The position numbers were made by a program, and so were the translations under genes. The notes below the pieces were generated by a model. That model was not told the DNA's origin. It did not search any database and saw only the letters and a list, made by a program, of their open reading frames with translations. A stretch of DNA of 64,000 nucleotides from a virus: positions 1-64,000 of IMG/VR virus record IMGVR_UViG_3300009105_000002. One strand, given 5' to 3'. Positions within the stretch are counted from its first letter, which is position 1, and the number at the start of each line of letters is the position of its first letter. Shown one piece after another: positions 461-42,767 of the stretch.

Positions 461-488
461 AGTTAACATAAGATACATTTTAAAAAGT
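461..488 (-). other. dif: dif-like XerC/XerD site, left boundary of prophage 1
   Basis: Minus strand ACTTTTTAAAA-TGTATC-TTATGTTAACT; XerD arm 10/11 and centre 5/6 identical to E. coli dif (GGTGCGCATAA-TGTATA-TTATGTTAAAT); XerC arm divergent. Confidence 0.85.
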
Positions 489-520
489 ATTTTATAACTG
501 TTTAATTAATCTAAACAGCT

Positions 521-556
521 AAGCCAAGCAGGATCAAATTCTTGCTTGGCTTTTTT
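521..556 (+). terminator. Intrinsic terminator-like hairpin just inside the left end
   Basis: AAGCCAAGCAGGA-loop-TCTTGCTTGGCTT followed by T run. Confidence 0.75.
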
Positions 557-577
557 ATTTTTAGGGAGGTGCTTCTT

Positions 578-1036
578 ATGACATTCGAATGGAAAGAATG
601 TCCAAACTTACCAAACCCAAAATGGTTTATACCTTTACTTATTATATTCCTCTTTATAGTGTTTTTCTGCTCACTTGCTTTTGCAGAGGAAATAACAGCT
701 CCACCAATTTGGAAAGTTTTAATGGCAGAAGCAGTATCAGAAGGTTATGACGGCATGTACGCTGTAGCATGCGTCATAAGAAATCGAGGGGGTGATTTAC
801 GTGGATTTATGGGAGCGAAAAGATCAGATCTGGACGAATTTTGTAATCGCCAGGGTAAGAGACATATTGAGATGGCGAAACGAATTGAGACTCTTGTATT
901 TAAAAATAACGCTAAAGATATTACAGGTAAGGCTACGCATTTTGAAAACGTGGGGAAATATGGAACACCCTATTGGGCTAAGGAAATGGTAGTCACATGT
1001 AAAATTGGCAAACACACATTCTTTACAAGGAGGTGA
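578..1036 (+). CDS. SleB-like cell wall hydrolase (Hydrolase_2) with N-terminal hydrophobic segment
   Basis: MAEAVSEGYDGMYAVACVIRNR, DITGKATHF, PYWA, KIGKHTFF; RBS AGGGAGG favours ATG 578. Confidence 0.8.
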   Translation: MTFEWKECPNLPNPKWFIPLLIIFLFIVFFCSLAFAEEITAPPIWKVLMAEAVSEGYDGMYAVACVIRNRGGDLRGFMGAKRSDLDEFCNRQGKRHIEMAKRIETLVFKNNAKDITGKATHFENVGKYGTPYWAKEMVVTCKIGKHTFFTRR

Positions 1037-1042
1037 TATCCA

Positions 1043-1360
1043 ATGACAGCAAAAGAAAGAACTAGAAAGACAATCCACGAGTTATACGAGAAATACTATG
1101 CCGACAGAAAAAACGGCAACAATGGTAACGGCAAAATAGCCATAGGAATGAAGCGACACCTGCTAGGCTCTTCAAGAAATGACTTAGTGTTACAAGCTAA
1201 ACAACGCGGGATAAAGAATTTCAGAGTCATGAATAAGGAACAGCTGACCGAGATTCTACAAGAAGATACAACGGTAGAGCGCGCACAAGAAATAGCGAAT
1301 CAGGCGGTTAGTCGCTGGAAGGCAGGCTGGAGCAAAAATAAGGCGGTGATAAAGCAATGA
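1043..1360 (+). CDS. Protein with Rho N-terminal-like helix-extended-helix motif
   Basis: SRNDLVLQAKQRGIKNFRVMNKEQLTEIL; RBS AGGAGG. Confidence 0.55.
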   Translation: MTAKERTRKTIHELYEKYYADRKNGNNGNGKIAIGMKRHLLGSSRNDLVLQAKQRGIKNFRVMNKEQLTEILQEDTTVERAQEIANQAVSRWKAGWSKNKAVIKQ

Positions 1361-1473
1361 ATGATTATTACAAGGATAGATTAAAGGATGCGGAGTTTAG
1401 CGCAAAAGTCATAGCAATATGTATAATCTTGGCGGGTTTATTGACATCAATCTGCATGCTTTTTGATTTATAA
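1357..1473 (+). CDS. 38-aa single-pass membrane peptide (not in ORF track)
   Basis: MNDYYKDRLKDAEFSAKVIAICIILAGLLTSICMLFDL*, ATGA overlap with previous stop. Confidence 0.45.
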   Translation: MNDYYKDRLKDAEFSAKVIAICIILAGLLTSICMLFDL

Positions 1474-1537
1474 AGAGGAATTTGGATTATAAAAAGAACT
1501 CGGCATATAAGATAGAACAATATTTTGGAGGTTTGAT

Positions 1538-2632
1538 ATGAGAGCGAGCGCACTTCCCATAGTTTCAAAATGCAGAGGATCCCACAAGCTTACGAAGGGA
1601 CATGGATCCGTAATCTCCAGGCTCGGAACAGCGTTCCACGAAGCAGCCAGGGCCCAAGTTTTACATGAACCGATGGACATGGCGGGCTTGACAATTAGAT
1701 ACGGCCTGACAGAGGACGAAATAAGGAGCCTGAGGGCCGGGCTTTACAACCTTATTATAAACATCCCTGAAGGAGCAACGGTTCTGGCTGACAATACGCA
1801 ACTCATAGGGCTGAACGGAAAGCTAAGCGGGACCCCAGATCTGGCTGTCTATCACAAAAAGACAGTTCTTATCGTAGATTGGAAATCCGGATGGGGTGAC
1901 GTGGAACCTCCAGAGACTAACAATCAAATAATAAGTTATGCAATTTTGATTTTGGAAGAACTGGAAAAAAAGGGTCTCGAGATCCATGGCTTTAATCTGA
2001 TGATCGTGCAGCCAAAGCTCGGCCAGGTAAAGAGCGTAAACATGACACCGGAACAGATTCGAGCGCTGGCCAAAGACATCGAGACAATTATCGATGAGGC
2101 AGAGAAAGAAGGCGAGCCAGAATTTACAACAGGGCCATGGTGTGCGGCGTGTTTTAAAAGCATGAACTGCCCAGCCTTCGCGGGCCAGGTGCAGGCCCTG
2201 GCAAAGTTTCTGGTGCCAGGCTCCGAGCTCGAGGCAAAGACAGCTGTGGCTGCCCTGCTGCCATTCGCTAAGGCCTGCAGTTTTATGGCCAAGAAGATAG
2301 AAGATCTTGCCAAGGCTTATGTCGATAAGCATGGTGAGCTGAACTTGGGTTATAGCCAGAAATACATCAAGGCAATCGACCAAAGAAAGGAGGTAGAAGT
2401 AAGAAAAGCATTGCGTATTTTAAAGGAATACTTTCCAGAGGATCAAATCTTTGATGAGTGTATATCGATAAGTCTCACCAAGATCATGAATCTGGCGAAG
2501 GCAACAAAAAGGGGACTGACGACAATTTTAAGTAACAGGCTGACCCAGGAGGGAGCAATAACACAAAAGCCTATAACGTCGTATCGCATAATTAAAGGAG
2601 GAGATAATGGTAGAAAAGAAAGCCTTGAGTAA
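1538..2632 (+). CDS. PD-(D/E)XK Cas4-like exonuclease (DUF2800-like)
   Basis: GTAFHE, GTPD, IVDWKSG, QIISYA, CAAC-x5-CP; next to recT. Confidence 0.8.
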   Translation: MRASALPIVSKCRGSHKLTKGHGSVISRLGTAFHEAARAQVLHEPMDMAGLTIRYGLTEDEIRSLRAGLYNLIINIPEGATVLADNTQLIGLNGKLSGTPDLAVYHKKTVLIVDWKSGWGDVEPPETNNQIISYAILILEELEKKGLEIHGFNLMIVQPKLGQVKSVNMTPEQIRALAKDIETIIDEAEKEGEPEFTTGPWCAACFKSMNCPAFAGQVQALAKFLVPGSELEAKTAVAALLPFAKACSFMAKKIEDLAKAYVDKHGELNLGYSQKYIKAIDQRKEVEVRKALRILKEYFPEDQIFDECISISLTKIMNLAKATKRGLTTILSNRLTQEGAITQKPITSYRIIKGGDNGRKESLE

Positions 2633-3704
2633 AACGGAAGGCACGGGAGATATCCGAAGCCTTATACAATCGGATGCAGGAAAGAAACAATTTGCGCTCG
2701 CATTACCAAAGCACATAAAGCCGGACAGGTTTGTAAGGGTAGCACTTACGGCGTTCACCAAGAACCCAAAGCTGTTGAGTTGTACCAAAGAAAGCCTTTT
2801 ATCCGCGCTTTTAGATTGCTCATCCATGGGCATAGAACCGGATGGCAGAAAAGCTCACCTTATACCTTATAACGATAAAAAGAACAATCGAATTATTTGC
2901 ACGCTTATCGTCGATTATAAGGGCCTGGTGGATATCGCCAGGAGATCCGGAGAGATAGCCGATATCCATGCGGACGTGGCATGCGAGAATGATAAATTTG
3001 AATGCAGCTATGGAACAGATTCTAAGCTTACCCATGTCCCGGCGCGCAGCAATAGAGGCAAAGTCGTTCAAACCTATAGCTTTGTAAGACTGAAGGACGG
3101 ATCCTCGAGCTTCGAGGTTATGAATATCGAAGAGATAGAGAAGATCAGGACCAGATCGAAGGCAGCAAACAACGGACCATGGGTTACGGACTGGAACGAG
3201 ATGGCGAAGAAGACAGTCTTCCGAAGGCACTCAAAATGGCTTCCGGAATCACCAGAGATGCAGATGGCCCTGGAGAAAGATTGGGATAAGCCTACGGATA
3301 TATTTTCCCCAGGAGATATCGCAGCTCCGATGGTCGGTTTAAGGAATGACAAAAAAAACAAACCACAGCCGGCGATAGATGTACAGGCAGGCCCGGGAGC
3401 AAAAACAGAAAAACCCGAGGAACAACAACAGGCTAAGCAATTTATGCCGTCGCCTTCGGACTTGACAAAGACATCCTCGACTGTCATGAAGCGCGAGATC
3501 ATGGCCATGATAAGAGACGTTGTAGGAGAAGATGAGAAGGCGGTAGCGGATACCCTGATGGCCTACACGACGTACATAGGAGGAAACGGAGTGAAGGTAA
3601 TGGGAATAAGAGATATAAATGACCAGTTATTCAACGACGAGTGGGTCGTAAGAGCGCATGAGAAACTGGCGAAGTCTTATATCGAGAGGGCAGGGAAGAA
3701 ATAA
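2607..3704 (+). CDS. recT: RecT single-strand annealing protein
   Basis: ALPKHIKPDRFVRVAL, YKGLVDIARRSG, PWVTDWNEMAKKTVFRR. Confidence 0.92.
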   Translation: MVEKKALSKTEGTGDIRSLIQSDAGKKQFALALPKHIKPDRFVRVALTAFTKNPKLLSCTKESLLSALLDCSSMGIEPDGRKAHLIPYNDKKNNRIICTLIVDYKGLVDIARRSGEIADIHADVACENDKFECSYGTDSKLTHVPARSNRGKVVQTYSFVRLKDGSSSFEVMNIEEIEKIRTRSKAANNGPWVTDWNEMAKKTVFRRHSKWLPESPEMQMALEKDWDKPTDIFSPGDIAAPMVGLRNDKKNKPQPAIDVQAGPGAKTEKPEEQQQAKQFMPSPSDLTKTSSTVMKREIMAMIRDVVGEDEKAVADTLMAYTTYIGGNGVKVMGIRDINDQLFNDEWVVRAHEKLAKSYIERAGKK

Positions 3705-5552: not shown

Positions 5553-7211
5553 ATGGGAGATCTAAAGAATATCTTATTGTCTGAAATAAGCGTATCAAAG
5601 CACAACCCGCGCAAGCATCTGGATGATGGAAAGATGCAGGATCTGATTAAGTCGGTTATTGAAAAGGGAGTAATCCAGCCGATACTTGTACGCCCTAAGA
5701 ACGGAAAGTGCGAGATAGTATACGGTGAGCGTAGATTCAAGGCGGCAAAAGAGGCGGGTCTTAAGGCGATACCGGCCGTTGTGAAGGATCTTGATGATAA
5801 GCAGGCGCTTGAATTTCAGGTGATAGAGAACCTGCAACGCGAGGACGTGCATCCTTTAGAGGAAGCAGAAGGGTACGAGGTATTGATGAAAAAGCACGGT
5901 TATAAAACCGTGGATGATATCGCAGCCAAAGTCGGAAAAAGCAGATCCTATGTTTACGGCCGGATAAAGTTATGTGATTTAATCCCAGAAAACCGTAAGC
6001 TATTTTATGCAGGTAAATTTTCGCCTTCCGTGGCGCTTCTCGTGGCCAGGGTACCGGCGCATCTACAGAAAGAAGCGGGTAATAAAGTCGCGTATGGACA
6101 GTACGGTCGCGGATATCCTATGTCCTACAGAGATGCAAAGGAATATATCCATGAACATTTTATGCTACAGCTCAAAGAGGCACAGTTTGACACAAAGGAG
6201 AAAGGCCTAGCCGGCAAGATATCCTGTGCGGAATGCCCAAAGAGGACAGGTAACCAAAAAGAGCTTTTTGAGGACGTAAACCGTGCAGACGTCTGCACTG
6301 ATCCGGCCTGTTTTGAGGCAAAGAAGAACGCCTTCACGCAGAGAACTATTGCAAAAATGAAAGCACAGAAGAAGGCCGTACTTTCCCAGGATGAGGCAAA
6401 AAAATTATTCCGGTATCAGAACGACGAAACCCCGGAGCATAAATATACCAACTTGGAAGATCAACACTACTATGGCGGTAAATATAGGGACCTGCGTGGC
6501 ATAGCTAGGGCTACCAAGGATCTGGAAATCGTCCACGCGGTGCAGCCATATTCCGGCAAGATCATCCAGATGGTCAAAAACGAGGACGTCCCCAGGATCC
6601 TTAAAAACGCAGGGATCAAGCCGGGTTCGGACGGCTCTTCAGGCAGAGACGCGAAATCCATGGCGCAGGCAAAGAAACAGAACCGGGTCAAAGAGGCAAA
6701 GAGAGGGTTTTGGATTAGCAAGGTCTCAATCGCCAAGGACCGCAGATGCATGAACGTAGTCATCTTGGACATCCTTTTGCATGACCTGGGGATAGGGGTA
6801 GCCAATTCACTCCTGCCGTTCAAGACCAGAGAGAGCTATTATCGCTCTTGGGATATACCAAAGCTATATGAACTCGGAGATGATGCTGTCCAGAAGTTAA
6901 TAGTCAAGGTTATATCCAAAAAGAGCGAATATCTCCTTGATGACGATTTAAAATTCCTATGTGGCGAGCTCGGGTTTGATATGTCCAGGGATTATGTGAT
7001 CACGGAGACATATCTCAATGCCATGACGAAAGACGAGCTGGTAAAACTGGCTAAAGAGATCGGGATGATAAAGGCACTGGAGGAGAAGAATATCGATTGC
7101 TCTGACATGGGTTCGGTGAAGAAAAAGGCGCTTGTGCAGGCGTTCCTAACATGGAACGGACTCAAGGGTAAGATTCCTAAGGAGCTCAGCGGCTCAAAAA
7201 AGAGGAAGTAA
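5553..7211 (+). CDS. ParB/Spo0J family protein (PRTRC ParB-like)
   Basis: NPRK, GVIQPILVR, GERRFKA, ENLQREDV, HTH, CAECPKRTG and CTDPACF; no parA seen. Confidence 0.88.
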   Translation: MGDLKNILLSEISVSKHNPRKHLDDGKMQDLIKSVIEKGVIQPILVRPKNGKCEIVYGERRFKAAKEAGLKAIPAVVKDLDDKQALEFQVIENLQREDVHPLEEAEGYEVLMKKHGYKTVDDIAAKVGKSRSYVYGRIKLCDLIPENRKLFYAGKFSPSVALLVARVPAHLQKEAGNKVAYGQYGRGYPMSYRDAKEYIHEHFMLQLKEAQFDTKEKGLAGKISCAECPKRTGNQKELFEDVNRADVCTDPACFEAKKNAFTQRTIAKMKAQKKAVLSQDEAKKLFRYQNDETPEHKYTNLEDQHYYGGKYRDLRGIARATKDLEIVHAVQPYSGKIIQMVKNEDVPRILKNAGIKPGSDGSSGRDAKSMAQAKKQNRVKEAKRGFWISKVSIAKDRRCMNVVILDILLHDLGIGVANSLLPFKTRESYYRSWDIPKLYELGDDAVQKLIVKVISKKSEYLLDDDLKFLCGELGFDMSRDYVITETYLNAMTKDELVKLAKEIGMIKALEEKNIDCSDMGSVKKKALVQAFLTWNGLKGKIPKELSGSKKRK

Positions 7212-7311: not shown

Positions 7312-7917
7312 ATGGCAAGAAAAAGACAATTAGACCCGGAGTTCTTCAAGGATGAGGACATGGCGGATATCCCCTTTGAGGGCCGGCTATTCTACGCGGG
7401 CACCTGGTGCTTCTGCGAAGATACAGGGGTGTTCGAGGTTAAACATAGGACATTAAAGGCCGAGATATTCCCATATGATAACTTGGATACAAAGTCCTTA
7501 TATGAGCAGCTGAGAGATAAAGGGATGTATGTAGAATACAGTGTAAACGGCGCTATATACGCCTTTATAAGGGGGTTTCACAACAGGCAGACCATACAGT
7601 GGCCCTCGCAGTCTTTTTTGCCTCTACCGCCTAAGCCTTTTGTTGCCAGGATACCTTCAAAAATACGCAATCTCAATAAGTCCTCATTGAGCCTTCACGT
7701 AGCCCTCACTGAGCAATCAGCAAGAGTAGAGAAGAATAGAATAGAATTGAATAGAATAGAATTAATAGAATTAGATCATATAGATATCAATATAAATAGC
7801 CTTAAAAAACTCTTTAATTCAAAAACAAAACTTAAAGACCATCTCCTGAGGACAAGAGGTATGAAAGAAGAAAGAGTAGATGAGATTTTAAAGAAGCATT
7901 TCTCTAACTTAAAGTAA
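7312..7917 (+). CDS. Phage replication initiator-like protein
   Basis: N-terminus MARKRQLDPEFFKDE typical of phage replisome organisers; internal repeats. Confidence 0.65.
   Translation: MARKRQLDPEFFKDEDMADIPFEGRLFYAGTWCFCEDTGVFEVKHRTLKAEIFPYDNLDTKSLYEQLRDKGMYVEYSVNGAIYAFIRGFHNRQTIQWPSQSFLPLPPKPFVARIPSKIRNLNKSSLSLHVALTEQSARVEKNRIELNRIELIELDHIDININSLKKLFNSKTKLKDHLLRTRGMKEERVDEILKKHFSNLK
7670..7790 (+). repeat. Putative phage origin: five 11-bp iteron-like repeats then AGAAT repeats
   Basis: ATCTCAATAAG TCCTCATTGAG CCTTCACGTAG CCCTCACTGAG CAATCAGCAAG (nnnTCAnnnAG) at 7670-7724, then AT-rich pentamer run. Confidence 0.6.
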
Positions 7918-8566: not shown

Positions 8567-8773
8567 GTGGTGGATTTGTCCCCAAAGGTAAGAACAATGA
8601 TTAACATCGGCCACATCACAACATCAGATAAATCTATATTGAAACGCTATAAGAAGGCCCATAATCCAGAGGAACTGGAAGGCTCGCAGAAGCCCTGCCC
8701 GCACTGCGGCCACGGGACCATTTACAGACATGGCAGGATGTGGACACCGTGTCCTGCTTGCAGGAATAAATAA
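8567..8773 (+). CDS. Small zinc-ribbon protein
   Basis: CPHC and CPAC; start may be ATG 8597. Confidence 0.55.
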   Translation: MVDLSPKVRTMINIGHITTSDKSILKRYKKAHNPEELEGSQKPCPHCGHGTIYRHGRMWTPCPACRNK

Positions 8774-8943
8774 TGAGCAAAGAGAGTGAATTTTCTGGTG
8801 GAAGAATAAGACCTGAATGCCCTGATTGCGGGCAATTTTGTAAAATGCCTAAACATTATTGGGCAAGTCATAGGGGAAGCTTCGCTAATAGCTATTGTAA
8901 GCGGTGCAAAAAGAAAGTTAAGTTGAGCGTAGAGTTTATTTAA
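8773..8943 (+). CDS. 56-aa zinc-ribbon protein (not in ORF track)
   Basis: MSKESEF..CPDC..CKRC; TAATG coupling. Confidence 0.55.
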   Translation: MSKESEFSGGRIRPECPDCGQFCKMPKHYWASHRGSFANSYCKRCKKKVKLSVEFI

Positions 8944-8985
8944 CCAAGGGCGCAAACAGCAGCGTCTCGAAGAAAGGGAGGTAAT

Positions 8986-9183
8986 ATGTACGGCAAGGTT
9001 AAATGGTTCGACAATAAAAAAGGATATGGCTTTATTACGCCCGAAAATGGAAAAGATGTATTTGTTCATCATACGGCCATAAAGGGAACGGGATATAGGA
9101 CATTAGAAGAAGGTCAGGAAGTAGAATTTGATGTTGTCGAAGGAAATAGGGGGAAACAGGCGGCTAACGTAGAAAAATTATAA
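8986..9183 (+). CDS. cspA: Cold-shock domain protein
   Basis: GKVKWF, KGYGFI (RNP1), DVFVHH (RNP2), QAANV. Confidence 0.95.
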
Positions 9184-9188
9184 ACAAG

Positions 9189-9425
9189 ATGAGCATGAGT
9201 CAGGAAAATATAATATTGGAATATCTGAAATCAGGCAAGAGCCTTACGCCTATGGATGCGCTTACTCTTTGTAATTGCTGGGCGTTATCGAGCCGGATTT
9301 CCGAGATCCGCAAAAAATACCCTTCTATAGACATACAGGTAGATACGATTCATGATGAAGCGACAGGAAAACATTATGCAAAATATTATATTCCTCGAGA
9401 GGCCCAGATGGAAATGAAATTATAA
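9189..9425 (+). CDS. Winged-helix DNA-binding protein
   Basis: ILEYLKSGKSLTPMDAL..LSSRISEIR. Confidence 0.7.
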   Translation: MSMSQENIILEYLKSGKSLTPMDALTLCNCWALSSRISEIRKKYPSIDIQVDTIHDEATGKHYAKYYIPREAQMEMKL

Positions 9426-10279: not shown

Positions 10280-10882
10280 ATGAAAGAACGCTCCATAATT
10301 ATGTGCGCAGAAGATGTAATAGCGACTCTTGAAGGTAGAAAGACGCAGACGAGGAGAGTTATTAAGCCACAGCCACTAAAAATAATCTATTGTGGTAGAA
10401 AGGTAGGGCGACCAAAGGAAGAATATGATTGGAAAAAATTAGCTACACCGAAGAAAGATTTAGTGAAGGCTTGCCCCTATGGTCAAGTCGGAAATAGGTT
10501 GTGGGTGAGGGAAAGCTATACATTAACTAATTATAAAAACCCTGTGTATAGAGCTGATTTTAAAGATAAAGATGGAATGTTTTGGAGTAGAGTAGCGATT
10601 GACCCAAAAGATGTAAAATGGTATCCTTCAATTTTTATGGCAAAAAACCTTTCTCGCATAACCTTAGAGATTACTGATGTAAGGGTGGAGAGGTTGCAGG
10701 AGATAAGCGAGGAAAATGCTAAAGCAGAAGGAACTAACTATATCACAACTTGTCCATATTGTTGTCCTAATTGTCCAACTTATATAGATTATTTCCGTGA
10801 GTTATGGAACTCCATCCACAAAAAAGAACATAGATGGGAAGATAATTGTTGGGTGTGGGTGATAACATTTAGGAGGGCATGA
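10280..10882 (+). CDS. ASCH/PUA-like phage protein
   Basis: GRKTQTRR, CPYGQVGNRLWVRE, PSIFM..SRITLEITDVRVERLQEISE, WVWVITF. Confidence 0.75.
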   Translation: MKERSIIMCAEDVIATLEGRKTQTRRVIKPQPLKIIYCGRKVGRPKEEYDWKKLATPKKDLVKACPYGQVGNRLWVRESYTLTNYKNPVYRADFKDKDGMFWSRVAIDPKDVKWYPSIFMAKNLSRITLEITDVRVERLQEISEENAKAEGTNYITTCPYCCPNCPTYIDYFRELWNSIHKKEHRWEDNCWVWVITFRRA

Positions 10883-12211: not shown

Positions 12212-13540
12212 ATGCAAAACCCCATCAAATGGCATAGCGAGAAAAGAATGATACAAGACCTCAGTTTAGCAGAATATAATCCGAGAAAAGCCACAGAAAA
12301 ACAGACCGCAGATCTCTCCGCTTCACTTGAACGATTCTCCCTGGCTGATCCAATCATTATTAATAAGAACAATAGGGTCATAGGCGGGCATTTTAGAATC
12401 AAAGTTTTACAAGAAAAAGGCACCCAGGAAATAGATGTCAGGGTGCCAAATAGAGAGCTGAACGAATCGGAAGAAAGAGAGCTTAATCTGAGGCTTAATA
12501 AGAATTTAGGGGATTGGGATATCGATGCACTATCTAATTTCGATGAGAGCTTATTGAAAGATATCGGGTTTAGCAGCGAGGAAATAGATAGCATTTTTGA
12601 TCTGAATATCAGCGAGCCTGAAGAGTTTGACATAGAAAAGGAGTTGGAAAGACTAAAGATAGAAGAGATCAGGGTTAAAAAGTGCGATATCTGGCAGCTG
12701 GGGAATCATCGGTTAATGTGTGAGAGCTCAACGAGCCTTGAGGCCTTGGAGAAGCTTGTAGACGGCCAGAGAATGGATTTTTGCTTTACTGACCCGCCCT
12801 ATATTCTTGATTATCTTAAGACAAAGTATAAGGGCAAGCCGAGCTGTAAGGGGTTTGGATATAGGGCTAACCGGAGATATCTCGAGACAGATTCCGCGCC
12901 GCAATTTAATGAATGGATACCGAATATAGCCAAACTCTTGAAAGAAAATGCCAGCATAATCATTTATGAGAACTGGAAGAATATTATACCACTATGGCAG
13001 GAGATGGAGAAGCATTGGAAGATCCGTAATTTAATCGTTTGGCATTTATCAAACCGTGTCCAGGGCTTTGCTGCGAAATATAGATTCTTCAATAAGTATG
13101 ACATAGCAATGCTCGCAACCCATGGAGATATGAATATTAACTCAGAGACCGAGGAAGAACTCTTACAGAATGAATATGAAATGGCAGTTTACGCAACATC
13201 AGGTAAGCCACACTGGGAGTCCTATCAAAAAGGCAAGAAATATTGCCCAACCGATGTAATTACTTTTAGGGCAAGCGATCGCACTCATTCGGGCCAGGGG
13301 ATAATATTCGGGACTAAGCCTGTAGAGATCTTAATTCCTTACATAAAAGTTTTGACCAAAAGAGACGATAACGTGATTGAACCTTTTGCGGGCTCCGGAT
13401 CTACGCTTATTGCCTGCGAAAGGATGAAAAGGCGTTGTTTCTGTATGGAACTGGTGCCGACTTATTGTGAAGTGATTATAAATCGCTGGGAAAAATATAC
13501 AGGGAAGAAGGCAGGATGTATAACCGCTGGAAGAGATTAA
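12212..13540 (+). CDS. ParB-N domain fused to N4/N6 DNA methyltransferase
   Basis: YNPRK..GGHFR; TDPPY; KPVEI; EPFAGSGST. Confidence 0.9.
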   Translation: MQNPIKWHSEKRMIQDLSLAEYNPRKATEKQTADLSASLERFSLADPIIINKNNRVIGGHFRIKVLQEKGTQEIDVRVPNRELNESEERELNLRLNKNLGDWDIDALSNFDESLLKDIGFSSEEIDSIFDLNISEPEEFDIEKELERLKIEEIRVKKCDIWQLGNHRLMCESSTSLEALEKLVDGQRMDFCFTDPPYILDYLKTKYKGKPSCKGFGYRANRRYLETDSAPQFNEWIPNIAKLLKENASIIIYENWKNIIPLWQEMEKHWKIRNLIVWHLSNRVQGFAAKYRFFNKYDIAMLATHGDMNINSETEEELLQNEYEMAVYATSGKPHWESYQKGKKYCPTDVITFRASDRTHSGQGIIFGTKPVEILIPYIKVLTKRDDNVIEPFAGSGSTLIACERMKRRCFCMELVPTYCEVIINRWEKYTGKKAGCITAGRD

Positions 13541-14016
13541 AAGCTATAACCAAAAGCCTGGATAACGGCGCGTCCTTAACTGCGGCATGTAAGGGTGTCG
13601 GGATACGTTTCGTCACGCTTTGGAGATGGCGAAAGGATAATCCCAAGATAGATGCGTTCATACAAAAGGCGCTCGATAATCAGATTCAGATAGTAGAGGA
13701 TGCCTTATTCAAGCGCGCCACAGGATATCGATATGAAGAAGTCACAAAGGAAAGAGAAGAAAGCGCGTCTGAAAAACGCATTGCAAAAGTAGTTGTTAAA
13801 GAGGTCCTACCGGACACCACCGCCCAGATTTTCTATCTTACTAACCGGGCTCCGGAGAAATGGAAAGATAGAAGGGCGCTTGTTAATAACACCGTAATAA
13901 ACAACCCTAAAGACAGCAAACGCAAAGACCCATTTAAAGACATACCTGTACCCGTTTTAAAAAGAATGGTTGATCAATCTGAAGGAAAAGTTGATGACGG
14001 AAACGGTAGAAAATAA
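13516..14016 (+). CDS. terS: Terminase small subunit
   Basis: HTH, VEDALFKRATGY, PDTTAQIFYLTNR; upstream of terL. Confidence 0.75.
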   Translation: MYNRWKRLKAITKSLDNGASLTAACKGVGIRFVTLWRWRKDNPKIDAFIQKALDNQIQIVEDALFKRATGYRYEEVTKEREESASEKRIAKVVVKEVLPDTTAQIFYLTNRAPEKWKDRRALVNNTVINNPKDSKRKDPFKDIPVPVLKRMVDQSEGKVDDGNGRK

Positions 14017-15499
14017 TATTATAAACGGCGCTAAATTATCTCTTGCCATAAGAGATGCTGATTCATTCTGCGAGTATGTGTTAAAAGATGATAAGGGCCA
14101 AAAGGTTACGCAGGCGTCTATTCATCGTGAGATGAATGAGCATATAGATGAATGCCGCAGACGCGGCGTAAGATGCGGCATATTGGCGCCATGGAGACAT
14201 GGTAAGACAGAACAAATTGCCATTGCCCGTACGCTTCAATTCTTAGGTGAAAATCCTAATAATAGAATCCAGATTGTAACTAATACGGATGCCAATTCAG
14301 TGTCAAGGGTGGATTCCATATCCAGATATATAGAACACGATGAAGATTATCATGAAGTATACCCCAATATAGCCCCAGGAGAGAAGGAATCCTGGTCCAA
14401 ACATAAACTCATAGTTCAAAGAGAGACAAAGATAAAAGACGGCTCTGTCGAGGCGTGGGGTATTACCACGTCCGGCACAGGTTCAGGCTGTGATTACTTA
14501 ATAGTCGATGACCCGGTAGACCTTAGGAATGCAATACTTAATCCCGCAATGCGTAAGACCGTAAAAGACTCTTTTTACAACGTATGGTCAACGAGGCTTG
14601 AGCCTAACGGATTTATGATCTATATCGCAACGATCTGGCATGAGGATGATCTAACGTCAGAGCTTTTAAAGAACCCGGAGTATTATTTCCTCGTGATGAA
14701 GATATCCCAAGACTTCAGCTGCATAGAATGCGAATCGCCGTTTAAAGGTAAGTATACGATACCGCTCTGGGATAAGTGGCCGAAAGAAAAGTTAATCGCA
14801 AGGCATAATGAAATAGGCTCGCGCGCGTTCAATCGAGGGTATAGACAGGAAGCATTGTCAGACGAGGACAGGACTTTTAACTATTACCTTAATATATTTA
14901 AGAAAGGTATCAAAATTAGTGATGTGGTTCGCCGCGACTGGCCTAGGGTGGGCGGCATGGATCCATTTGGCCAATGGGTAGTTATATTCACATTGGCATT
15001 GAGCCCTGAGGGCAGGAGATACCCGGTTGAGATCAGGCGTGGCAAGTGGGATCCTAAAGTGGCAGTAATGGAGTTGATCGATTCATATAGAATGCATAAG
15101 CATCAGATTATCTGTGTTGAAAATAATGCCGCGCAGTCTGCAATAAGGCAGTGGGCCCTGGAGAAGGGATCAGCAGGGATGCCGCTTGTGCCTTTTACCA
15201 CAGGTTCACAAAAGGCGCATCCGGAATTAGGTCTTCCAGGTATGAATGTTGAATTCGAGAACGGATCATGGGTTGTTGCGGATCCGGAGCATGGACTGGA
15301 TTGTCAATGCGCGTGGTGTATTTGGAAGATGGAGTTAAGGACACATCCTGTAAGCACGACAGCTGATACAGTAATGGCATCATGGCTTGCGCGCGAAGCA
15401 GCCAGGGCGCTTATGGCGGGAGTGTGTCAGCCTCAGGCCGAAGAGGTTGTCACTATGGAAGACGTAGGTTTAGAGCGCGTTAAAATAGGGGATTATTAA
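13970..15499 (+). CDS. terL: Terminase large subunit
   Basis: APWRHGKT (Walker A), LIVDDP (Walker B), YRQE, GMDP nuclease motif; start may be ATG 13994. Confidence 0.88.
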   Translation: MINLKEKLMTETVENNIINGAKLSLAIRDADSFCEYVLKDDKGQKVTQASIHREMNEHIDECRRRGVRCGILAPWRHGKTEQIAIARTLQFLGENPNNRIQIVTNTDANSVSRVDSISRYIEHDEDYHEVYPNIAPGEKESWSKHKLIVQRETKIKDGSVEAWGITTSGTGSGCDYLIVDDPVDLRNAILNPAMRKTVKDSFYNVWSTRLEPNGFMIYIATIWHEDDLTSELLKNPEYYFLVMKISQDFSCIECESPFKGKYTIPLWDKWPKEKLIARHNEIGSRAFNRGYRQEALSDEDRTFNYYLNIFKKGIKISDVVRRDWPRVGGMDPFGQWVVIFTLALSPEGRRYPVEIRRGKWDPKVAVMELIDSYRMHKHQIICVENNAAQSAIRQWALEKGSAGMPLVPFTTGSQKAHPELGLPGMNVEFENGSWVVADPEHGLDCQCAWCIWKMELRTHPVSTTADTVMASWLAREAARALMAGVCQPQAEEVVTMEDVGLERVKIGDY

Positions 15500-20701: not shown

Positions 20702-21079
20702 ATGGCTTTTACGTATGATTTAAGTACGAATGTAGGAAAGGTTAGAAATTTAATCGGGGATGCCGTTGATTCAGGGCATTTGTTAGAAGATGCGGATATA
20801 ACTTCGTTTTTAGCAATGACGACGAGTGATCTCTATATGACAGCGTATCATTGCTTGATGCGGATTGCTAATTCTCAGGCCTTATTGGCCAAAATGAAAC
20901 AGGCCGGGGACTACAAAGAGGATCTTAGATCTGTTGCTAAAGAGTTAAGAGAGAATGCCAAGATGTTTAAGGAGATGTCAGAAAATATACCTGCTGAAGC
21001 ACAAGCAGAACATTTTAGAAATGATTTTAGCTATAGAGATATCACTGACCGTAAAGCTTTAAGGAATGATAATACATGA
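20702..21079 (+). CDS. Head-tail adaptor
   Basis: MAFTYD..GKVRNLIGD..LLEDADI; follows MCP. Confidence 0.7.
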   Translation: MAFTYDLSTNVGKVRNLIGDAVDSGHLLEDADITSFLAMTTSDLYMTAYHCLMRIANSQALLAKMKQAGDYKEDLRSVAKELRENAKMFKEMSENIPAEAQAEHFRNDFSYRDITDRKALRNDNT

Positions 21080-24041: not shown

Positions 24042-24615
24042 TGCCAGCATAGATATCAAGAGAATGATGGATGAGGTTCTTGATAAAGCAGCTGTAGTTG
24101 CATCGATGAGTCTTGATCGGCAGCCAGCAGAGGAAGTATACCTTCAGATTGAAGTGGAAGGATGCACAGTAGGATCCGGGCTTGTAAGTTTTGATGGATC
24201 AACGACTGAACAGGTTGCTTTTACCGCAGATGGTATAAATGTATCAACTAAGGGATTCACAAGCGTGTCTGGGATCACAGTTGCAGAGATATCTGATGGT
24301 TTTATTACGATCAGGGGAGTCAGCAAGCTTGGCCAGAATATAAATCAAGAAGTCAGTATTTATACAGGTATGTCGGTTATGTTTTATCCTCTGACTGGCA
24401 GGGCAAAAGAGATTTTGATGATAGCAACTGGTCAAAAGGATATAGCAATTTATAAATTCATGGCCCCACCTGCAAATATTATCAAACGTAACGATTTAAT
24501 GTATGCAGTATCGGGAATTCAGGGATTAACGCGAGGTCAAGTTGATTCTGTTAATGAAATAGTTGATCTTGATGGCAATACTCATCATGTAGAATGTAAC
24601 ATCTTAGGCCTTTGA
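24016..24615 (+). CDS. Probable head-closure/structural protein
   Basis: Position in head-tail region; C-terminal HHVEC resembles head-closure proteins. Confidence 0.5.
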   Translation: MSELTNVLNASIDIKRMMDEVLDKAAVVASMSLDRQPAEEVYLQIEVEGCTVGSGLVSFDGSTTEQVAFTADGINVSTKGFTSVSGITVAEISDGFITIRGVSKLGQNINQEVSIYTGMSVMFYPLTGRAKEILMIATGQKDIAIYKFMAPPANIIKRNDLMYAVSGIQGLTRGQVDSVNEIVDLDGNTHHVECNILGL

Positions 24616-24633
24616 GGCCGTAAAGGAGGAAAC

Positions 24634-29331: not shown

Positions 29332-29538
29332 ATGAAATTTAAAGTTACTATGATATGTAAGGAAATTTGGCGTGCTGAAACGGTTGTGGAAGTAGAACAA
29401 CAATTTTCAGATGTGGCTTTAGACATGGAAGCGATTAAAGATGAGGCGTGGGGAAAGTTTGATGCAATTTGTGCAAGGGATTTGGAACAAGAAAATTATA
29501 CAAAGGTAGAAGAAATAAAACCAATGAGGTTTAAATAA
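29332..29538 (+). CDS. Small hypothetical protein between chaperone and TMP
   Basis: MKFKVTMICKE, GGAGG RBS, TAATG coupling to TMP. Confidence 0.55.
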   Translation: MKFKVTMICKEIWRAETVVEVEQQFSDVALDMEAIKDEAWGKFDAICARDLEQENYTKVEEIKPMRFK

Positions 29539-31802
29539 TGCCTTTATTCGGCGCAGGTAACTTAGGATCTCTAGTTGTCAAGATAGAAACGGATCTGACT
29601 AATCTTAACAGAGGGCTAGAGACGGCCAACACAAAGATACAAAAATCCAGCGGAGCTATACTCAAAATGGCCAGTCAAGTCGGCCGGCAGATGACGATTG
29701 CCGGGGTGGCTGTCACAGCGGCCATGGGAGGCATGGTAAAGGCCTCTATTGACTTCGAGAGTGCCTTTGCAGGGGTTAGGAAGACCGTTGATGCCACAGA
29801 GGCTGAATTTAAGCAATTAGAAGGCAATTTTAGGGGTCTATCCACAGAAATACCCATCACAGCCACAGAATTGGCTCGTATAGGCGAAAAAGCAGGCCAG
29901 CTGGGCATCCGGGGCGTTGAAAACCTTACTAAATTCACAGAGACGATTGCATTAATCGGAGTTACTACGGATCTAACCACTGAGGATGCAGCTATTCAGT
30001 TCGCCAGGATTACCAATGTCATGCAGGAGCCAATTGCAAATATTGACCGTATGGGCGCGTCTATAGTAGATCTGGGTAATAACTTCGCAGCCAATGAAGT
30101 TGAAATTACCAATTTTGCTACGCGTGTAGCAGGTGCCGGCAAGCTTATGCATATGACAACAGCTAATGTGTTAGGTATAGGTACGGCATTTACAGCTGTG
30201 GGTGTTAAGGCGGAAATGGGTGGCACTGCAGTTCAAAAGGTTATATTGAAAATGATCGCGGCAGTGGCATCGGGCAATAAGGATCTAGAGGTATTTGCAG
30301 AAGTAGCAGGTATGACGGTTGAAGAATTCGTGAAGATGAAGGAAAAGGACCCTTCTGAAGTGTTTGTGCGGTTTGTGGAAGGCATAGGAGAGCTTGGAGA
30401 TGATGCTATACCTATATTAGAGAGCCTGGGGTTATCAAATGAGAGGGTCCGTAGTTCATTTTTAAGAATGGCGAGCGCAAGCGATACCTTAAGAAGCGCA
30501 ATTGATAGATCTGATATAGCATGGGATGAAAATACAGCTTTGCTGATCGAGGCTGAGAAGCGTTTTAAAACTACCGCATCACAACTTAAGCTTCTGGTAA
30601 ATAATATCGTTGAGGTTGCGCGTAAAGTCGGAGATACATTATTACCTGTTCTTAAGCCCATGATAGAGGATTTTAAAGAGTGGATTCAAAAAGTAGGAGA
30701 ATGGATCACAGCACATCCTCAATTTACAGCAGGGCTGGCCAAAGCAGTAACTTTATTTGGACTTTTAATGCTTACGATAGGACCAATTTTAATAGTGCTT
30801 CCGCAGTTAGTTACTTCTATTCAAATGATTACAACTGCAATTAATTTGATGAAAGTATCATTAGGCGGTGTTGCAGGTATAGCAGGGGCAGCATTTATAG
30901 GATGGAATATAGGCAGAGTGCTTGGTGAAGTCACAGGATTAGATGAGGCATTAAGCGGAGAAGAAGGCCTTTTCACTAAAATGTGGGAATGGCTTGATAA
31001 GATTGATCCTAGGCTTGAAAAAATGATTGAGACCATTACGAGAATAGCTGAGGCTACAGCTACACTTGGCTTTTCAGAGTTATTTAGAGGAGAAAAAGAA
31101 GCACCTGAGGAAGAAGAGGAAGAGGAAGATAATACAAAAGAGAAAGAAGCAAAGAAGACAGCAATATTAGAAGCAGAAAACGAAAAGAGGATGACCAAAG
31201 AAAGACTTAGAAATGCAAATAAAGCAAAAATGTTATTAATAGAAGAAGGGAGAGAAAAGAAGAGCTTAGCTTCAAAAACAAAATGGTATGATAAATATTA
31301 TAAGGATAAGGACGACTTTCAGCAGAAATCTTTTGATAATATGAAGCGAGTTTTAGCCGGGGCCGCTCAGGAAAGTAAGGCGGCAGCGGTTGCTTTGTCA
31401 GCAATAAGAATTGGCGAAGCGATTATGAATACAGCGGCAGGTGTTACATTTGCATTGGCTTCATATCCACCGCCAATAAGTTATGTGTGGGCAGCTATTA
31501 CAGCAGCTATGGGCGCAATTGAAATTGCTACAATTGCATCAGTAGGTTTCGCAGAAGGGACTGATGAAATTCCTGCAAATGTATCTCCAGGAGAGATGAT
31601 TGTGCCAAGGACATTTGCCTCAGCTATCAGGTCAGGAGATATTACAGTTGCAGGCCCTGAGGGAAGCAATTCAGGAGGCAAGATAATTCAAGAATTAAAT
31701 ATTATATTTGAAGGTGATCTTAAATTAGAAAATGATACAGACATAGAAGACCTTGCAGAACAGTTAGGCGATGAAATAGAACGCAATTTGAGGGTCGTAT
31801 GA
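29538..31802 (+). CDS. Tape measure protein (TP901 family)
   Basis: ASIDFESAFAGVRKTVD, IVDLGNNFAANE, EAEKRFKT. Confidence 0.9.
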   Translation: MPLFGAGNLGSLVVKIETDLTNLNRGLETANTKIQKSSGAILKMASQVGRQMTIAGVAVTAAMGGMVKASIDFESAFAGVRKTVDATEAEFKQLEGNFRGLSTEIPITATELARIGEKAGQLGIRGVENLTKFTETIALIGVTTDLTTEDAAIQFARITNVMQEPIANIDRMGASIVDLGNNFAANEVEITNFATRVAGAGKLMHMTTANVLGIGTAFTAVGVKAEMGGTAVQKVILKMIAAVASGNKDLEVFAEVAGMTVEEFVKMKEKDPSEVFVRFVEGIGELGDDAIPILESLGLSNERVRSSFLRMASASDTLRSAIDRSDIAWDENTALLIEAEKRFKTTASQLKLLVNNIVEVARKVGDTLLPVLKPMIEDFKEWIQKVGEWITAHPQFTAGLAKAVTLFGLLMLTIGPILIVLPQLVTSIQMITTAINLMKVSLGGVAGIAGAAFIGWNIGRVLGEVTGLDEALSGEEGLFTKMWEWLDKIDPRLEKMIETITRIAEATATLGFSELFRGEKEAPEEEEEEEDNTKEKEAKKTAILEAENEKRMTKERLRNANKAKMLLIEEGREKKSLASKTKWYDKYYKDKDDFQQKSFDNMKRVLAGAAQESKAAAVALSAIRIGEAIMNTAAGVTFALASYPPPISYVWAAITAAMGAIEIATIASVGFAEGTDEIPANVSPGEMIVPRTFASAIRSGDITVAGPEGSNSGGKIIQELNIIFEGDLKLENDTDIEDLAEQLGDEIERNLRVV

Positions 31803-32539
31803 TATATACATTAATGTTTGGGTCTTATACATTTCCAAATCAAACCTTTGAAGTAGAAAGTTTACCTCTGGTCAATAATATTAAACAAAATACTGTACCT
31901 CGCAGGCATGGTAGTATTATTCAGGATCCATATCTTAAAGCGAGAAAGATTAAAGTAAAAGGGACTATTCATAATGCCACCCGGGCTACTGCATGGACAG
32001 AATTTATGGATATGCAGGAAGCGTTATTGGCAAGCGAAGATAAATTTTATCATCGCGCAGATAGGTATGTAAATTGTTGTTGCAATAAAATAACTCCTAA
32101 ATTTGCAGAAGGGACAGATAAAGGTGTTATTAATATAAATATAGATTTTATATCACAGGATCCGTTTTTTTATATGGCAGCGGCATCTTATAGCGATGTC
32201 AATAATCCTGTAGGAGTAACATTATCTTTTAATATAAATGGATTAGGTAATGTTTTTGCTGAACCTATAATTTACATATGCGCGACAGGTGGAACGATAA
32301 CAGATGAGATTCAGCTTGAAAACCAGACAACAAAAGAACTCTTTGTATTTAATGGCGTAGTTAATAATGGCGTAACCTTAGAAATAGATACCAAGGATTT
32401 TACGGTAGAAAACAATGCAGTTGACGGGATAAGTGAATTTGGAGGAGATTTTTTAACTGTAGCAGCGGGTTCAAATTTATTTAGATTTGTAGGAGCTACA
32501 TGCAGGGTTACAGTGGAACATAAATCAAGGTGGTATTGA
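31799..32539 (+). CDS. Distal tail protein (Dit-like)
   Basis: After TMP; DPFFY, EIDT, GSNL, SRWY. Confidence 0.75.
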   Translation: MIYTLMFGSYTFPNQTFEVESLPLVNNIKQNTVPRRHGSIIQDPYLKARKIKVKGTIHNATRATAWTEFMDMQEALLASEDKFYHRADRYVNCCCNKITPKFAEGTDKGVININIDFISQDPFFYMAAASYSDVNNPVGVTLSFNINGLGNVFAEPIIYICATGGTITDEIQLENQTTKELFVFNGVVNNGVTLEIDTKDFTVENNAVDGISEFGGDFLTVAAGSNLFRFVGATCRVTVEHKSRWY

Positions 32540-41036: not shown

Positions 41037-41042
41037 GAAGAA

Positions 41043-41486: not shown

Positions 41487-41538
41487 AGTTAAGATTTCCT
41501 CCTTATGAAGACTGGAATTGCTTTCCAATGGTAAGTTA

Positions 41539-41616
41539 ATTATATCATACGAATGGCCCCTTTGTAAAGAAATTAAAAAATAATTCTTGACAGAACTGTT
41601 ATACTTGTATTATACT
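41539..41616. promoter_or_regulatory. Divergent sigma70-type promoter pair
   Basis: Minus: TTTACA-18-TATAAT with TG (41568-41539); plus: TTGACA-18-TATACT (41587-41616). Confidence 0.65.
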
Positions 41617-41649
41617 ATAGTAAACAATTAACGTGAGAAGGAGGTACTT

Positions 41650-41826
41650 ATGCCGAGAATAAAAAAATATGGCAAGGCTCACGCAGTAAGGTTTAAAAAG
41701 GATGTTGAAAAAAAGCTCCTTCAGGTCTGCATTCAAAAGGAAGTCAATAAATCCGACATCATTCAGAATGCCGTAGAGTGTTATCTCTTCAACAAAAAAT
41801 GCTTTGCAAAGAGAAGATCGCTGTAA
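41650..41826 (+). CDS. Ribbon-helix-helix (CopG-like) regulator, 58 aa (not in ORF track)
   Basis: AAGGAGGT RBS; HAVRFKKDVEKKLLQVCIQKEVNKSDIIQNAVECYL. Confidence 0.7.
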   Translation: MPRIKKYGKAHAVRFKKDVEKKLLQVCIQKEVNKSDIIQNAVECYLFNKKCFAKRRSL

Positions 41827-41839
41827 AGAGAGGGCTATC

Positions 41840-42262
41840 ATGCAAAAAATGTTCAATATGATTATACATAAAGTATCAAAAAAGGGTAAATCTAATTTAA
41901 CATACTCGTATCCTGAATATAAGCTTGTTTTTAAAAGAGGGGCTGTGGCAGCGATCAAGAAAGCAAAAGGATGGAAAAGCGACAACAAGATGGCAATGGC
42001 CTTAGGGATCACAAGGGCAATGCTTTCTGGCATGAAAAGTCAGAAATTAAACGTTACTCATAAGATAATGACGAGGCTGGCATACCAGCTCAGCAATACA
42101 AGAGGCAATTGGTGGACACACTTTGAAATGGTAGAATGGGGACATATACCGCAGAACCACCCATTATACAACCACGACAAGTACATGGGTCGGATACCTT
42201 ACACAGAACATAGCCCAGCAGCTGCTTTTAGAAGCTTAGATTATGAGGCAGAGAGCTTGTAG
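41840..42262 (+). CDS. XRE/Cro-like HTH regulator
   Basis: SDNKMAMALGITRAMLSGM. Confidence 0.65.
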   Translation: MQKMFNMIIHKVSKKGKSNLTYSYPEYKLVFKRGAVAAIKKAKGWKSDNKMAMALGITRAMLSGMKSQKLNVTHKIMTRLAYQLSNTRGNWWTHFEMVEWGHIPQNHPLYNHDKYMGRIPYTEHSPAAAFRSLDYEAESL

Positions 42263-42299
42263 GATTCGGGTGGATCCTAAAAAAATCGGGAAAAAGACC

Positions 42300-42328
42300 T
42301 TGACAGGGAAAAGACCATCAGGTAAACT
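42300..42328 (+). promoter_or_regulatory. Sigma70-type promoter pointing toward right dif site
   Basis: TTGACA-17-TAAACT. Confidence 0.65.
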
Positions 42329-42352
42329 ATTAGGTGAAAAGGAGAGAAGCGC

Positions 42353-42478
42353 ATGAAACACAAAGCCCCCAAAGTCGAATTTGAAAAGCGTGGATTTTTT
42401 CTGTCCATTAAATCCCTGTCTCTGAAAGGAACAAGACCACGCTACCTGAAAAGGTTAATGGCTTTGGGGCCCGAGTAA
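42353..42478 (+). CDS. 41-aa peptide overlapping a structured RNA
   Basis: AAGGAG RBS; MKHKAPKVEFEKRGFFLSIKSLSLKGTRPRYLKRLMALGPE*. Confidence 0.35.
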   Translation: MKHKAPKVEFEKRGFFLSIKSLSLKGTRPRYLKRLMALGPE

Positions 42479-42663
42479 GAGCAGGGCTTTTTTATTTGTG
42501 AAATGAGAGAGGACCGTAAAAGAGTCTTTAGAAACTGAATGGGTAGCGCCGAGAAGGCAGTACGGAGATTAAGCCGTCAGGAGTAGGCCGCAAGGTCGAT
42601 TAAAACCGTAAGGGCTACAAAGCAAGGGCAAAATAGCTTGCTTGGCGTGACTTGGGTAAAGTG

Positions 42664-42672
42664 TTATCCACA
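42664..42672 (+). promoter_or_regulatory. DnaA box, 76 bp before right dif-like site
   Basis: Perfect TTATCCACA. Confidence 0.7.
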
Positions 42673-42739
42673 CGATTCTAACAATATATCGTAACTTGTT
42701 GAAAGACTTACAGTTACGCATATATTTTTTAAATACCCA

Positions 42740-42767
42740 AGTTAACATAAGATACATTATAGGCGGT
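42740..42767 (-). other. dif: dif-like XerC/XerD site at junction of prophages 1 and 2
   Basis: Minus strand ACCGCCTATAA-TGTATC-TTATGTTAACT with canonical inner ATAA/TTAT symmetry. Confidence 0.9.

Follow-up and report, generated by a model that had tools for sequence, protein, structure and literature searches.

Two tailed phages without a detected integrase between dif-type sites: a candidate Xer-dependent prophage array in Omnitrophota

The dif-type sites and the two phages between them

From the IMG/VR virus record IMGVR_UViG_3300009105_000002 (95,319 bp) we analysed the first 64 kb (64,000 nucleotides, henceforth referred to as the window), using record coordinates for everything beyond position 64,000. 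This work deals with three 28-bp sites in the record that resemble dif, the chromosome-dimer resolution site on which the host recombinases XerC and XerD act. They exactly delimit two complete phage genomes: phage A and, behind it, phage B, the late half of which falls in the window (Table 1).

A preliminary description of the window had reported an exact 21-bp direct repeat at both ends of a 42-kb element. The repeat is real. The 21-mer CAAGTTAACATAAGATACATT has exactly two copies in the window, both on the + strand (459-479 and 42738-42758), and no match arose in 100 shuffles that preserved the dinucleotides, even with 3 mismatches permitted. Read on the - strand, both copies extend to the 28-bp architecture of dif (11-bp arm, 6-bp spacer, 11-bp arm), and the site sequences confirm that the XerD arm and the spacer TGTATC are identical at the two ends while the XerC arms diverge. 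At site 1 the XerC arm matches the host arm at 5/11 positions, the spacer and XerD arm being canonical. Site 2 is fully canonical on both arms and indistinguishable from a host dif; both XerC-arm variants, AGCGCC.. and ACCGCC.., are present among host genomes. The element had thus been correctly placed between two sites of the dif type, but only one of them, site 2, is a canonical dif.

What follows the element on its right is not from the host but a second phage without a detected integrase, in which the opposite arm is crippled: site 3, close to the end of the record, carries a host XerC arm and a XerD arm that matches the canonical one at 3/11 positions. All three sites are co-oriented; their spacers are identical and their arms reciprocally exchanged. 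At the junctions phage A has no more than 21 bp of exact identity and phage B 17 bp, the latter core, common to sites 3 and 2, consisting of the XerC arm from position 3, the spacer and TT. The exchange at all three junctions falls within the common AATGTATCTT, which comprises the Xer spacer and the 2 bp that flank it at either end. The cumulative GC skew of the record peaks at 44 kb, near site 2, although this skew is confounded by gene orientation. A further dif-like site lies inside phage B, inverted on the + strand, with the terminase genes on one side and the upstream block on the other (record 70113-70140, L002:10113-10140; GGGATATATAA-TATTTG-TTATGTTAACT). It has a perfect XerD arm, a different spacer and no DnaA-box module alongside, and could be a chance occurrence, a relic or an Xer-binding decoy.

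Phage A carries a Caudoviricetes gene set (TerL, portal, protease, HK97-like major capsid protein (MCP), tape measure and Dit) and also encodes an SbcC-like protein (PHROG and Pfam matches). With structural and replication genes complete within 42.3 kb, it is a whole tailed prophage, as had been claimed. Phage B displays Caudoviricetes features as well (TerL, MCP-like, baseplate-like and fibre-like proteins), its portal being probable and assigned by position only. It converges on site 2 in a gene order that mirrors that of phage A, with which it has only three proteins in common. One of these, a CxxC...CxxC zinc-ribbon protein 70% identical in the two, is found among the early genes of both otherwise unrelated phages (window 8567-8773, + strand; record 90967-91158, - strand); no homologue appeared in any fetched locus, and Atlas gave only unnamed viral clusters below 0.9.

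We searched all six frames of the whole 95-kb record with hidden Markov models (HMMs) of the families Phage_integrase (PF00589), Resolvase (PF00239), Recombinase (PF07508) and rve (PF00665, the DDE transposase domain), and found no match at E<=1, while positive controls were detected. The absence of a recognisable tyrosine or serine recombinase, already noted for the ORFs between the two repeats, therefore extends to the entire record. Nor was there a match at E<=1 to DUF3653 (PF12375), the family of the Xer activator XafT. A second profile, built from six Omnitrophota tyrosine recombinases and run without speed filters against all six-frame fragments of the record, returned only noise (best E ~1 at 4 bits); the same profile readily finds integrases in nine other phage loci. 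Many open reading frames (ORFs) in both phages have no family assignment, and the small att-proximal proteins of A and B are obvious candidates for an Xer accessory factor. Two of them are orphans in the strict sense: neither the 152-amino-acid (aa) protein of phage A nor the 94-aa protein of phage B matched anything except itself among 5.8 billion clusters, and their single-sequence AlphaFold models are unusable (mean pLDDT, the predicted local confidence, 41 and 56, respectively). Five contigs are recorded as encoding a 91-aa att-proximal protein of phage B, which lies 61 nt from the site.

The late end of phage B is occupied by a giant protein with a central DNA-methyltransferase domain; viral contigs contain 47 relatives of its C-terminal 700 residues. 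The nine nearest of these (52–62% identity) have only that gene in common with phage B, so the giant gene appears to be a mobile module. In nine distant relatives with the giant late gene of phage B, a tyrosine integrase lies 0.04–7.5 kb downstream of it. Phage B has a dif-type site where those relatives have their integrase, which suggests that the integration module was replaced. A permissive arm-scoring scan of the relatives of phage B produced only noise, and a stricter dif regular expression nothing convincing.

Table 1. Features of the locus. Coordinates refer to the window unless marked as record coordinates; RHH, ribbon-helix-helix; HTH, helix-turn-helix.
Feature	Coordinates	Strand	Notes
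Host chromosome (by homology), XerD-arm side of dif	1-458		mostly non-coding; includes 3' end of a + strand gene (2-76)
Host copy of dif-adjacent module	377-460	-	palindrome and DnaA-box 9-mer TTATCCACA at 385-393 (+ strand)
Site 1	461-488	-	ACTTTTTAAAA-TGTATC-TTATGTTAACT; junction of phage A early end and host
Phage A	489-42739	+	42.3 kb; siphovirus-like; no recombinase detected; PHROG and Pfam matches
Intrinsic terminator	521-552	+	13-bp stem, then T run; between site 1 and first gene of phage A
Cell-wall hydrolase	542-1036	+	phage A; PHROG/Pfam
Exonuclease	1538-2632	+	phage A; PHROG/Pfam
RecT	2607-3704	+	phage A; PHROG/Pfam
ParB-like	5553-7211	+	phage A; PHROG/Pfam
Replication initiator	7312-7917	+	phage A; PHROG/Pfam
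ParB-methyltransferase	12212-13540	+	phage A; PHROG/Pfam
TerL	13970-15499	+	phage A; PHROG/Pfam
Portal	15573-17786	+	phage A; PHROG/Pfam
Protease	17801-19156	+	phage A; PHROG/Pfam
MCP	19637-20626	+	phage A; PHROG/Pfam
Glycan genes	~22.1-27.0 kb	+	phage A; PHROG/Pfam
Tape measure	29538-31802	+	phage A; PHROG/Pfam
Dit	31799-32539	+	phage A; PHROG/Pfam
Att-proximal regulatory region	41539-42262	+	phage A; near site 2
Divergent sigma-70-like promoters	41539-41616		phage A; att-proximal region
RHH-like ORF, 58 aa	41650-41826		phage A; att-proximal; no significant Pfam match
HTH-like orphan, 152 aa	41804-42262		phage A; att-proximal; no significant Pfam match
Phage A's own module copy	42660-42739	-	DnaA box at 42664-42672, same 68-nt offset
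Site 2	42740-42767	-	ACCGCCTATAA-TGTATC-TTATGTTAACT; between converging prophages A and B
Phage B	record 42768-95191	-	52.4 kb; tailed; unrelated to phage A; late half (42768-64000) in window
Promoter-like site, TTGACA-17-TAATAT with upstream TG	42780-42808	-	phage B late end; reads into site 2; consensus match only
Orphan, 94 aa	42828-43112	-	phage B; att-proximal
RHH_1 protein, 66 aa	43145-43345	-	phage B; att-proximal
Giant protein, 2,354 aa, methyltransferase-containing	44197-51261	-	phage B; ends 1.4 kb from site 2
Baseplate-like protein	58163-59401	-	phage B
MCP-like protein	61356-62276	-	phage B
TerL	record 67325-68785	-	phage B
RecT	record 92397-93509	-	phage B
Exonuclease	record 94169-94795	-	phage B
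Terminator	record 95056-95091		15-bp stem; phage B early end, just inside site 3
Site 3	record 95192-95219	co-oriented with sites 1 and 2	AGCGCCTATAA-TGTATC-TTGACAGATAC; ~100 bp from contig end

Large cassettes of glycan-related genes are present in both phages. In phage A a pyruvyl transferase and glycosyltransferases are embedded in the structural operon (glycan cassette, window 21076-26961), and in phage B a region at record ~73-90 kb encodes radical-SAM enzymes, a GtrB-like glycosyltransferase and a nucleotide-sugar epimerase. A megablast comparison of 24 kb of phage A with deposited phage genomes gave no match, and no relatives of its exonuclease were found in viral contigs. We considered whether the promoter at the late end of phage B could feed the early operon in the circular form of the phage, an idea weakened by the terminator standing between attP and the early genes.

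The host dif and its flanks

To whom site 2 belongs is indicated by a 26-mer that it has in common with L001, a viral fragment from a different sample (see below). In a scan of bacterial and archaeal genomes, one for each species, the 26-mer matched 24 contigs, all of them from metagenome-assembled or single-amplified genomes (MAGs or SAGs) of Candidatus Omnitrophota and with one copy per genome (some of these entries are labelled 'uncultured Planctomycetia'). Among 401 Omnitrophota genomes sampled, 25 contain the 17-mer formed by spacer and XerD arm, again as a single copy every time. The expected location at the replication terminus was borne out in two of the three long host contigs, where the site sits on the maximum of the cumulative GC skew (site at 120,639 and maximum at 120–122 kb in G002:C1; site at 57,620 and maximum at 58 kb in G003:C2). 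The third, G308:C2, reaches only 12 kb past the site, displays no skew turn and is uninformative.

The host genomes are small (1.4–1.7 Mb). One XerD equivalog (383–391 bits) and one XerC equivalog (351–362 bits) scored above the cut-offs in each of G003 and G004, and Xer paralogues as well as the FtsK-gamma domain were detected in 5/5 host genomes. Because the site is single-copy, lies at the GC-skew maximum and occurs in hosts that encode XerC, XerD and FtsK, we regard it as the chromosomal dif of a canonical XerCD/FtsK system in Omnitrophota.

Conservation around the host dif extends well past the 28 bp of the site, into a block of ~45 bp on the XerC side (..AACCATATAAAC..TTTGA..AAGCCAA) and one of ~77 bp on the XerD side. 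The latter ends in the DnaA-box 9-mer TGTGGATAA, which begins at a distance of 68 nt from the arm (67 nt at two loci) and is found with at most one mismatch in 20 of the 22 host loci that have enough flank; the 68-nt offset recurs in the left flank of the window. Just past the DnaA box conservation stops. The module was seen across host loci L004-L027, and the lineage of L013 and L001 is without the DnaA box. An RNA gene as the cause of the conserved flanks was rejected, since Rfam and tRNA searches of the host loci and the window identified no known RNA gene at the site.

Window positions 377-482 align at 73–85% identity with the block downstream of dif in 24 Omnitrophota loci, and the non-coding blocks 79-153 and 161-220 have counterparts in host loci L012, L005 and L023 on the corresponding side of dif. 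Since the host block, the offset of the box and these further blocks all match host loci, the 458-bp left flank is, on this homology, genuine host DNA. The two non-coding blocks are G/C-rich, recur downstream of dif in the same three loci and may be a repeated or structured element.

Phage A has a copy of the XerD-side block of its own. Positions 42660-42771 align at 72–82% with host loci, the best being hosts with a 'type II' module (L008 82%, L019 80%, L024 80%), so that the homology between the attP of phage A and the host extends ~80 bp past the XerD arm. On the other side of dif, the 100 bp beyond site 3 retain 27 of the 29 conserved columns of the host upstream block; the late end of phage B retains 19/29, a partial mimic, and the early end of phage A 15/29, which is no mimicry of that block. 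A separate similarity was noticed around window 8970-9186, within a divergent gene pair (8722-9072 on the - strand and 9189-9425 on the + strand, the second a winged HTH protein): over 60–65 residues it reaches 68% aa identity to sequences a few kb away from dif in host loci L022 and L023, and may reflect a regulator gene common to phage A and the host loci.

A tentative reading of this arrangement, which we consider possible but would not favour, is that dif in Omnitrophota belongs to a phylum-wide conserved, composite terminus module of ~160 bp (upstream block, 28-bp dif, palindrome and DnaA box at the fixed 68-nt offset) that would work as a unit, and that the phages would represent two complementary classes of half-module mimics. 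'D-side donors' such as phage A would supply the XerD arm, palindrome and DnaA box, and 'C-side donors', among them phage B and the phage of L001, would supply the upstream block and XerC arm. Each class would rebuild a complete module after Xer integration, and the classes would stack convergently around one functional dif. DnaA, the binding of which is predicted here from the box, or another factor might then be an accessory to Xer synapsis or to termination.

Integration by host Xer recombinases and its alternatives

[quoted passage not shown] As in IMEXs, the target is a dif at the replication terminus (judged from related genomes and not from the contig's own chromosome), the elements are bounded by co-oriented dif-like hybrids of attP and host dif with a common spacer, and no site-specific recombinase of their own was detected. 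The preliminary description had inferred a double-stranded DNA (dsDNA) siphovirus of this class, which the identity of the host dif, its terminus position and the presence of XerC, XerD and FtsK-gamma in the hosts support, dependence on Xer still being an inference.

Along the - strand the proposed order is host upstream flank, site 3, phage B, site 2, phage A, site 1 and host downstream flank. Site 3 would combine the XerC arm of the host with the crippled XerD arm of phage B; site 2 the XerC arm of phage B with the XerD arm and module of phage A; and site 1 the crippled XerC arm of phage A with the XerD arm and module of the host. From this the original host dif would have been AGCGCCTATAA-TGTATC-TTATGTTAACT, the circular attP of phage A ACTTTTTAAAA-TGTATC-TTATGTTAACT and that of phage B ACCGCCTATAA-TGTATC-TTGACAGATAC. 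Such an array is the expected product of two Xer-type exchanges in a common spacer, and since the same 6-bp spacer is found at all sites, complete two-strand exchange would be possible. We infer Xer catalysis, as well as the order of strand exchange, from these junctions.

Each phage would thus contribute the half-dif and the conserved flank that rebuild one canonical dif, and the degeneracy of its other arm would turn the far junction into a poor Xer substrate. By analogy with the Vibrio cholerae satellite TLCphi (PMC9226527) and with the gonococcal genetic island (GGI), such a junction should guard the prophage from deletion when FtsK activates dimer resolution. As opposite arms are crippled, phages A and B would come to lie on opposite sides of a single functional dif. 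The genes of both are co-directional with replication, and in both a strong intrinsic terminator stands just inside the early-end att site.

A second junction comes from L001, a 16.6-kb viral fragment with AAA_24, DUF669 and tRNA-Met genes that abuts a complete site. No integrase was detectable in its 16.6 kb and it has no gene in common with A or B. Compared with the nearest host locus, L013, it is 93% identical over 85 nt downstream of the site, 70% over the first 40 nt upstream and ~55% (background) beyond, a drop that indicates an independent phage-host junction at dif. An apparent second site in L001 (~10727-10754) is inverted and lies in AT-rich sequence, and we treated it as chance. A scan of viral contigs with the 15-mer formed by XerC arm and spacer gave 20 matches. 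Among these L001 alone has the full site; most of the others are coding and look like chance, and L053, L062 and L063 are unverified candidates of the phage B type.

Several observations weigh against this interpretation. XerC, XerD and FtsK were found in related MAGs and SAGs, not in the contig's own genome, and with only 100 bp past site 3 the DNA there may be host or the edge of a further element. Exact scans of viral contigs returned no match to the attP junction of phage A or to the empty site, and those of metagenome contigs none to the right end of phage A with its half-site or to the host flank with its half-site, in collections that may exclude the window's own record. No second copy of the 17-mer was found in the 25 Omnitrophota genomes that carry it (0/25), a portal homologue of phage A, a distant one only, occurs in 2/401, and the array is not yet seen in any binned genome. 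Crippled arms that match at 5/11 (XerC) and 3/11 (XerD) positions would be difficult for the two recombinases to bind, and no XafT-like activator was detected. Lastly, an assembly-graph chimera through the 17–21-bp cores, unlikely as it is, would give the same junction sequences.

The alternatives differ in how the phages came to dif, or whether they are there at all. Integration might have proceeded at dif without Xer, through a phage recombinase that our profiles do not recognise, many ORFs in both phages being without a family, or through homologous recombination by exonuclease and RecT, which are encoded near the early ends of both. The homology available to the second route is the dif module, ~105 bp in phage A (the block 72–82% identical to host dif regions) and 45 bp in phage B. 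We consider this improbable: outside the short exact cores the surroundings are too diverged for efficient homologous recombination, all three exchanges fall within the ten or so bases around the spacer, and a reciprocal swap of arms with one canonical dif as its outcome is a hallmark of site-specific exchange, for which no phage-borne recombinase fold family is detectable.

Little credence, and about as little, goes to plasmid-like prophages with resolution sites of the cer/psi type, for which the chromosomal co-integrate would be an occasional by-product of Xer. Among the genes of phage A are those for ParB-like proteins and for a replication initiator, plasmids commonly rely on XerCD for multimer resolution (PMC5357621), and tailed prophages of the plasmid type with Xer-related functions have been discussed (PMC8026635). 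Resolution, however, needs both recombinases bound, whereas one arm per phage is degenerate; no ParA partner was seen. Moreover, each phage mimics precisely the flank that rebuilds dif, as though adapted to the integrated state, and at either early end a strong terminator shields the phage from the flank.

About as improbable, in our judgement, is an assembly chimera in which free circular genomes of A and B, each with one dif-like site (e.g. for multimer resolution), were mis-threaded into a host terminus. A path through a shared k-mer would yield exactly the hybrid junctions observed, and the exact-match scans produced no independent contig for any of them. Assembly graphs do appear to branch at this point: MAG contigs L010, L012, L019, L020 and L027 have one of their ends no more than a few bases from dif, and one locus is split between two contigs, G405:C7 and G405:C52, with no overlap other than the site itself. 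Breaks of this kind are equally expected if occupancy of dif is polymorphic. As occupied loci, the contigs G405:C7 and G006:C7, which start at dif, were discarded, being ordinary host DNA with no second site. The final-contig k-mers of current metagenome assemblers, and presumably those behind this record, exceed the 17–21-bp cores shared here. Three mis-threadings would also be needed, in exactly the order that gives a coherent array with a canonical dif at a GC-skew peak, and L001 provides a phage-host junction from an independent sample. A single 95-kb phage is ruled out by the two sets of TerL, MCP and exonuclease/RecT genes, and a circular A+B co-integrate by the lack of terminal overlap and the difference between sites 1 and 3.

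Comparison with known Xer-exploiting elements

Xer hijacking has counted as a trait of small phages without tails, of satellites and of some few islands, and temperate phages with tails are expected to encode an integrase themselves. If phages A and B are what we propose, prophage finders and lifestyle predictors that use the integrase as a marker of temperate phages would misclassify such phages, dif would become a hotspot to inspect for large prophages, with contig breaks at dif as a diagnostic signal, and the arm degeneracy that Xer tolerates would widen to include a crippled XerC arm. By its sequence the site also ties phages firmly to hosts among the Omnitrophota, a phylum that is uncultured and has small genomes, and it brings to light an association, conserved in the phylum, of dif with a DnaA box to which DnaA is predicted to bind.

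The IMEX class is established for inoviruses, satellites, double jelly-roll (DJR) phages and islands, in which arrays and regeneration of dif are typical (PMC12715192, PMC4246890, PMC6744903). The nearest parallel to phage B are elements of the TLCphi type, which target dif1. Like phage B they have no integrase, an attP with the spacer of dif, a good XerC arm and a severely degenerate XerD arm that keeps its innermost T, and they leave a functional dif on one side and form arrays at dif (PMC6744903, PMC9226527). Unlike TLCphi, phage B is a 52-kb tailed dsDNA phage of an Omnitrophota host in which no XafT/DUF3653 homologue was detected, and it is a partial mimic of the host block that lies upstream of the XerC arm; where TLCphi-type elements have XafT next to attP, the att-proximal proteins here are orphans.

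Inoviruses of the CTX/VGJ type and dif-type DJR vibriophages likewise use host XerC/XerD, lack an integrase, have an attP that resembles dif, restore a canonical dif at one of the junctions and often occur in tandem arrays (PMC12715192, PMC4246890). These are filamentous or DJR phages with small genomes, whereas A and B are of the Caudoviricetes type. They cripple the XerD arm or the spacer, in contrast to phage A, which cripples the XerC arm; A and B flank the functional dif from opposite sides. The folded single-stranded DNA hairpin that serves CTXphi as attP, with spacer homology on the XerC side only, does not correspond to the dsDNA genomes and six-base spacer identity seen here.

The GGI, too, is a large (57-kb) dsDNA element without an integrase of its own that is located between a canonical dif and a degenerate site. 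This degeneracy has been proposed to limit FtsK-driven excision. The GGI is a type IV secretion island and not a virus, and an extended mimic of the dif flank, as in A and B, is not known in it.

With ordinary temperate Caudoviricetes the two phages have layout, gene content and an attP between late and early ends in common, and they differ from them in that no integrase, excisionase or other recombinase was detected and in that the att core is the host dif and not a tRNA or intragenic site. A 2025 survey contrasts dif-type non-tailed phages with 'Int-encoding tailed phages' (PMC12715192), and in the open-access full-text literature we found neither a report of a tailed-phage IMEX nor a counterpart to the combination of crippled XerC arm and perfect XerD arm of phage A; a single paper there brings together IMEXs, Xer and Caudoviricetes, and in it IMEXs are regarded as non-tailed. 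The comparison suggests that tailed phages, too, can borrow host XerC/XerD to integrate, and that the array described here represents a known mechanism in a type of element for which it had not been described, having so far been reported only for small non-tailed phages, satellites and islands.

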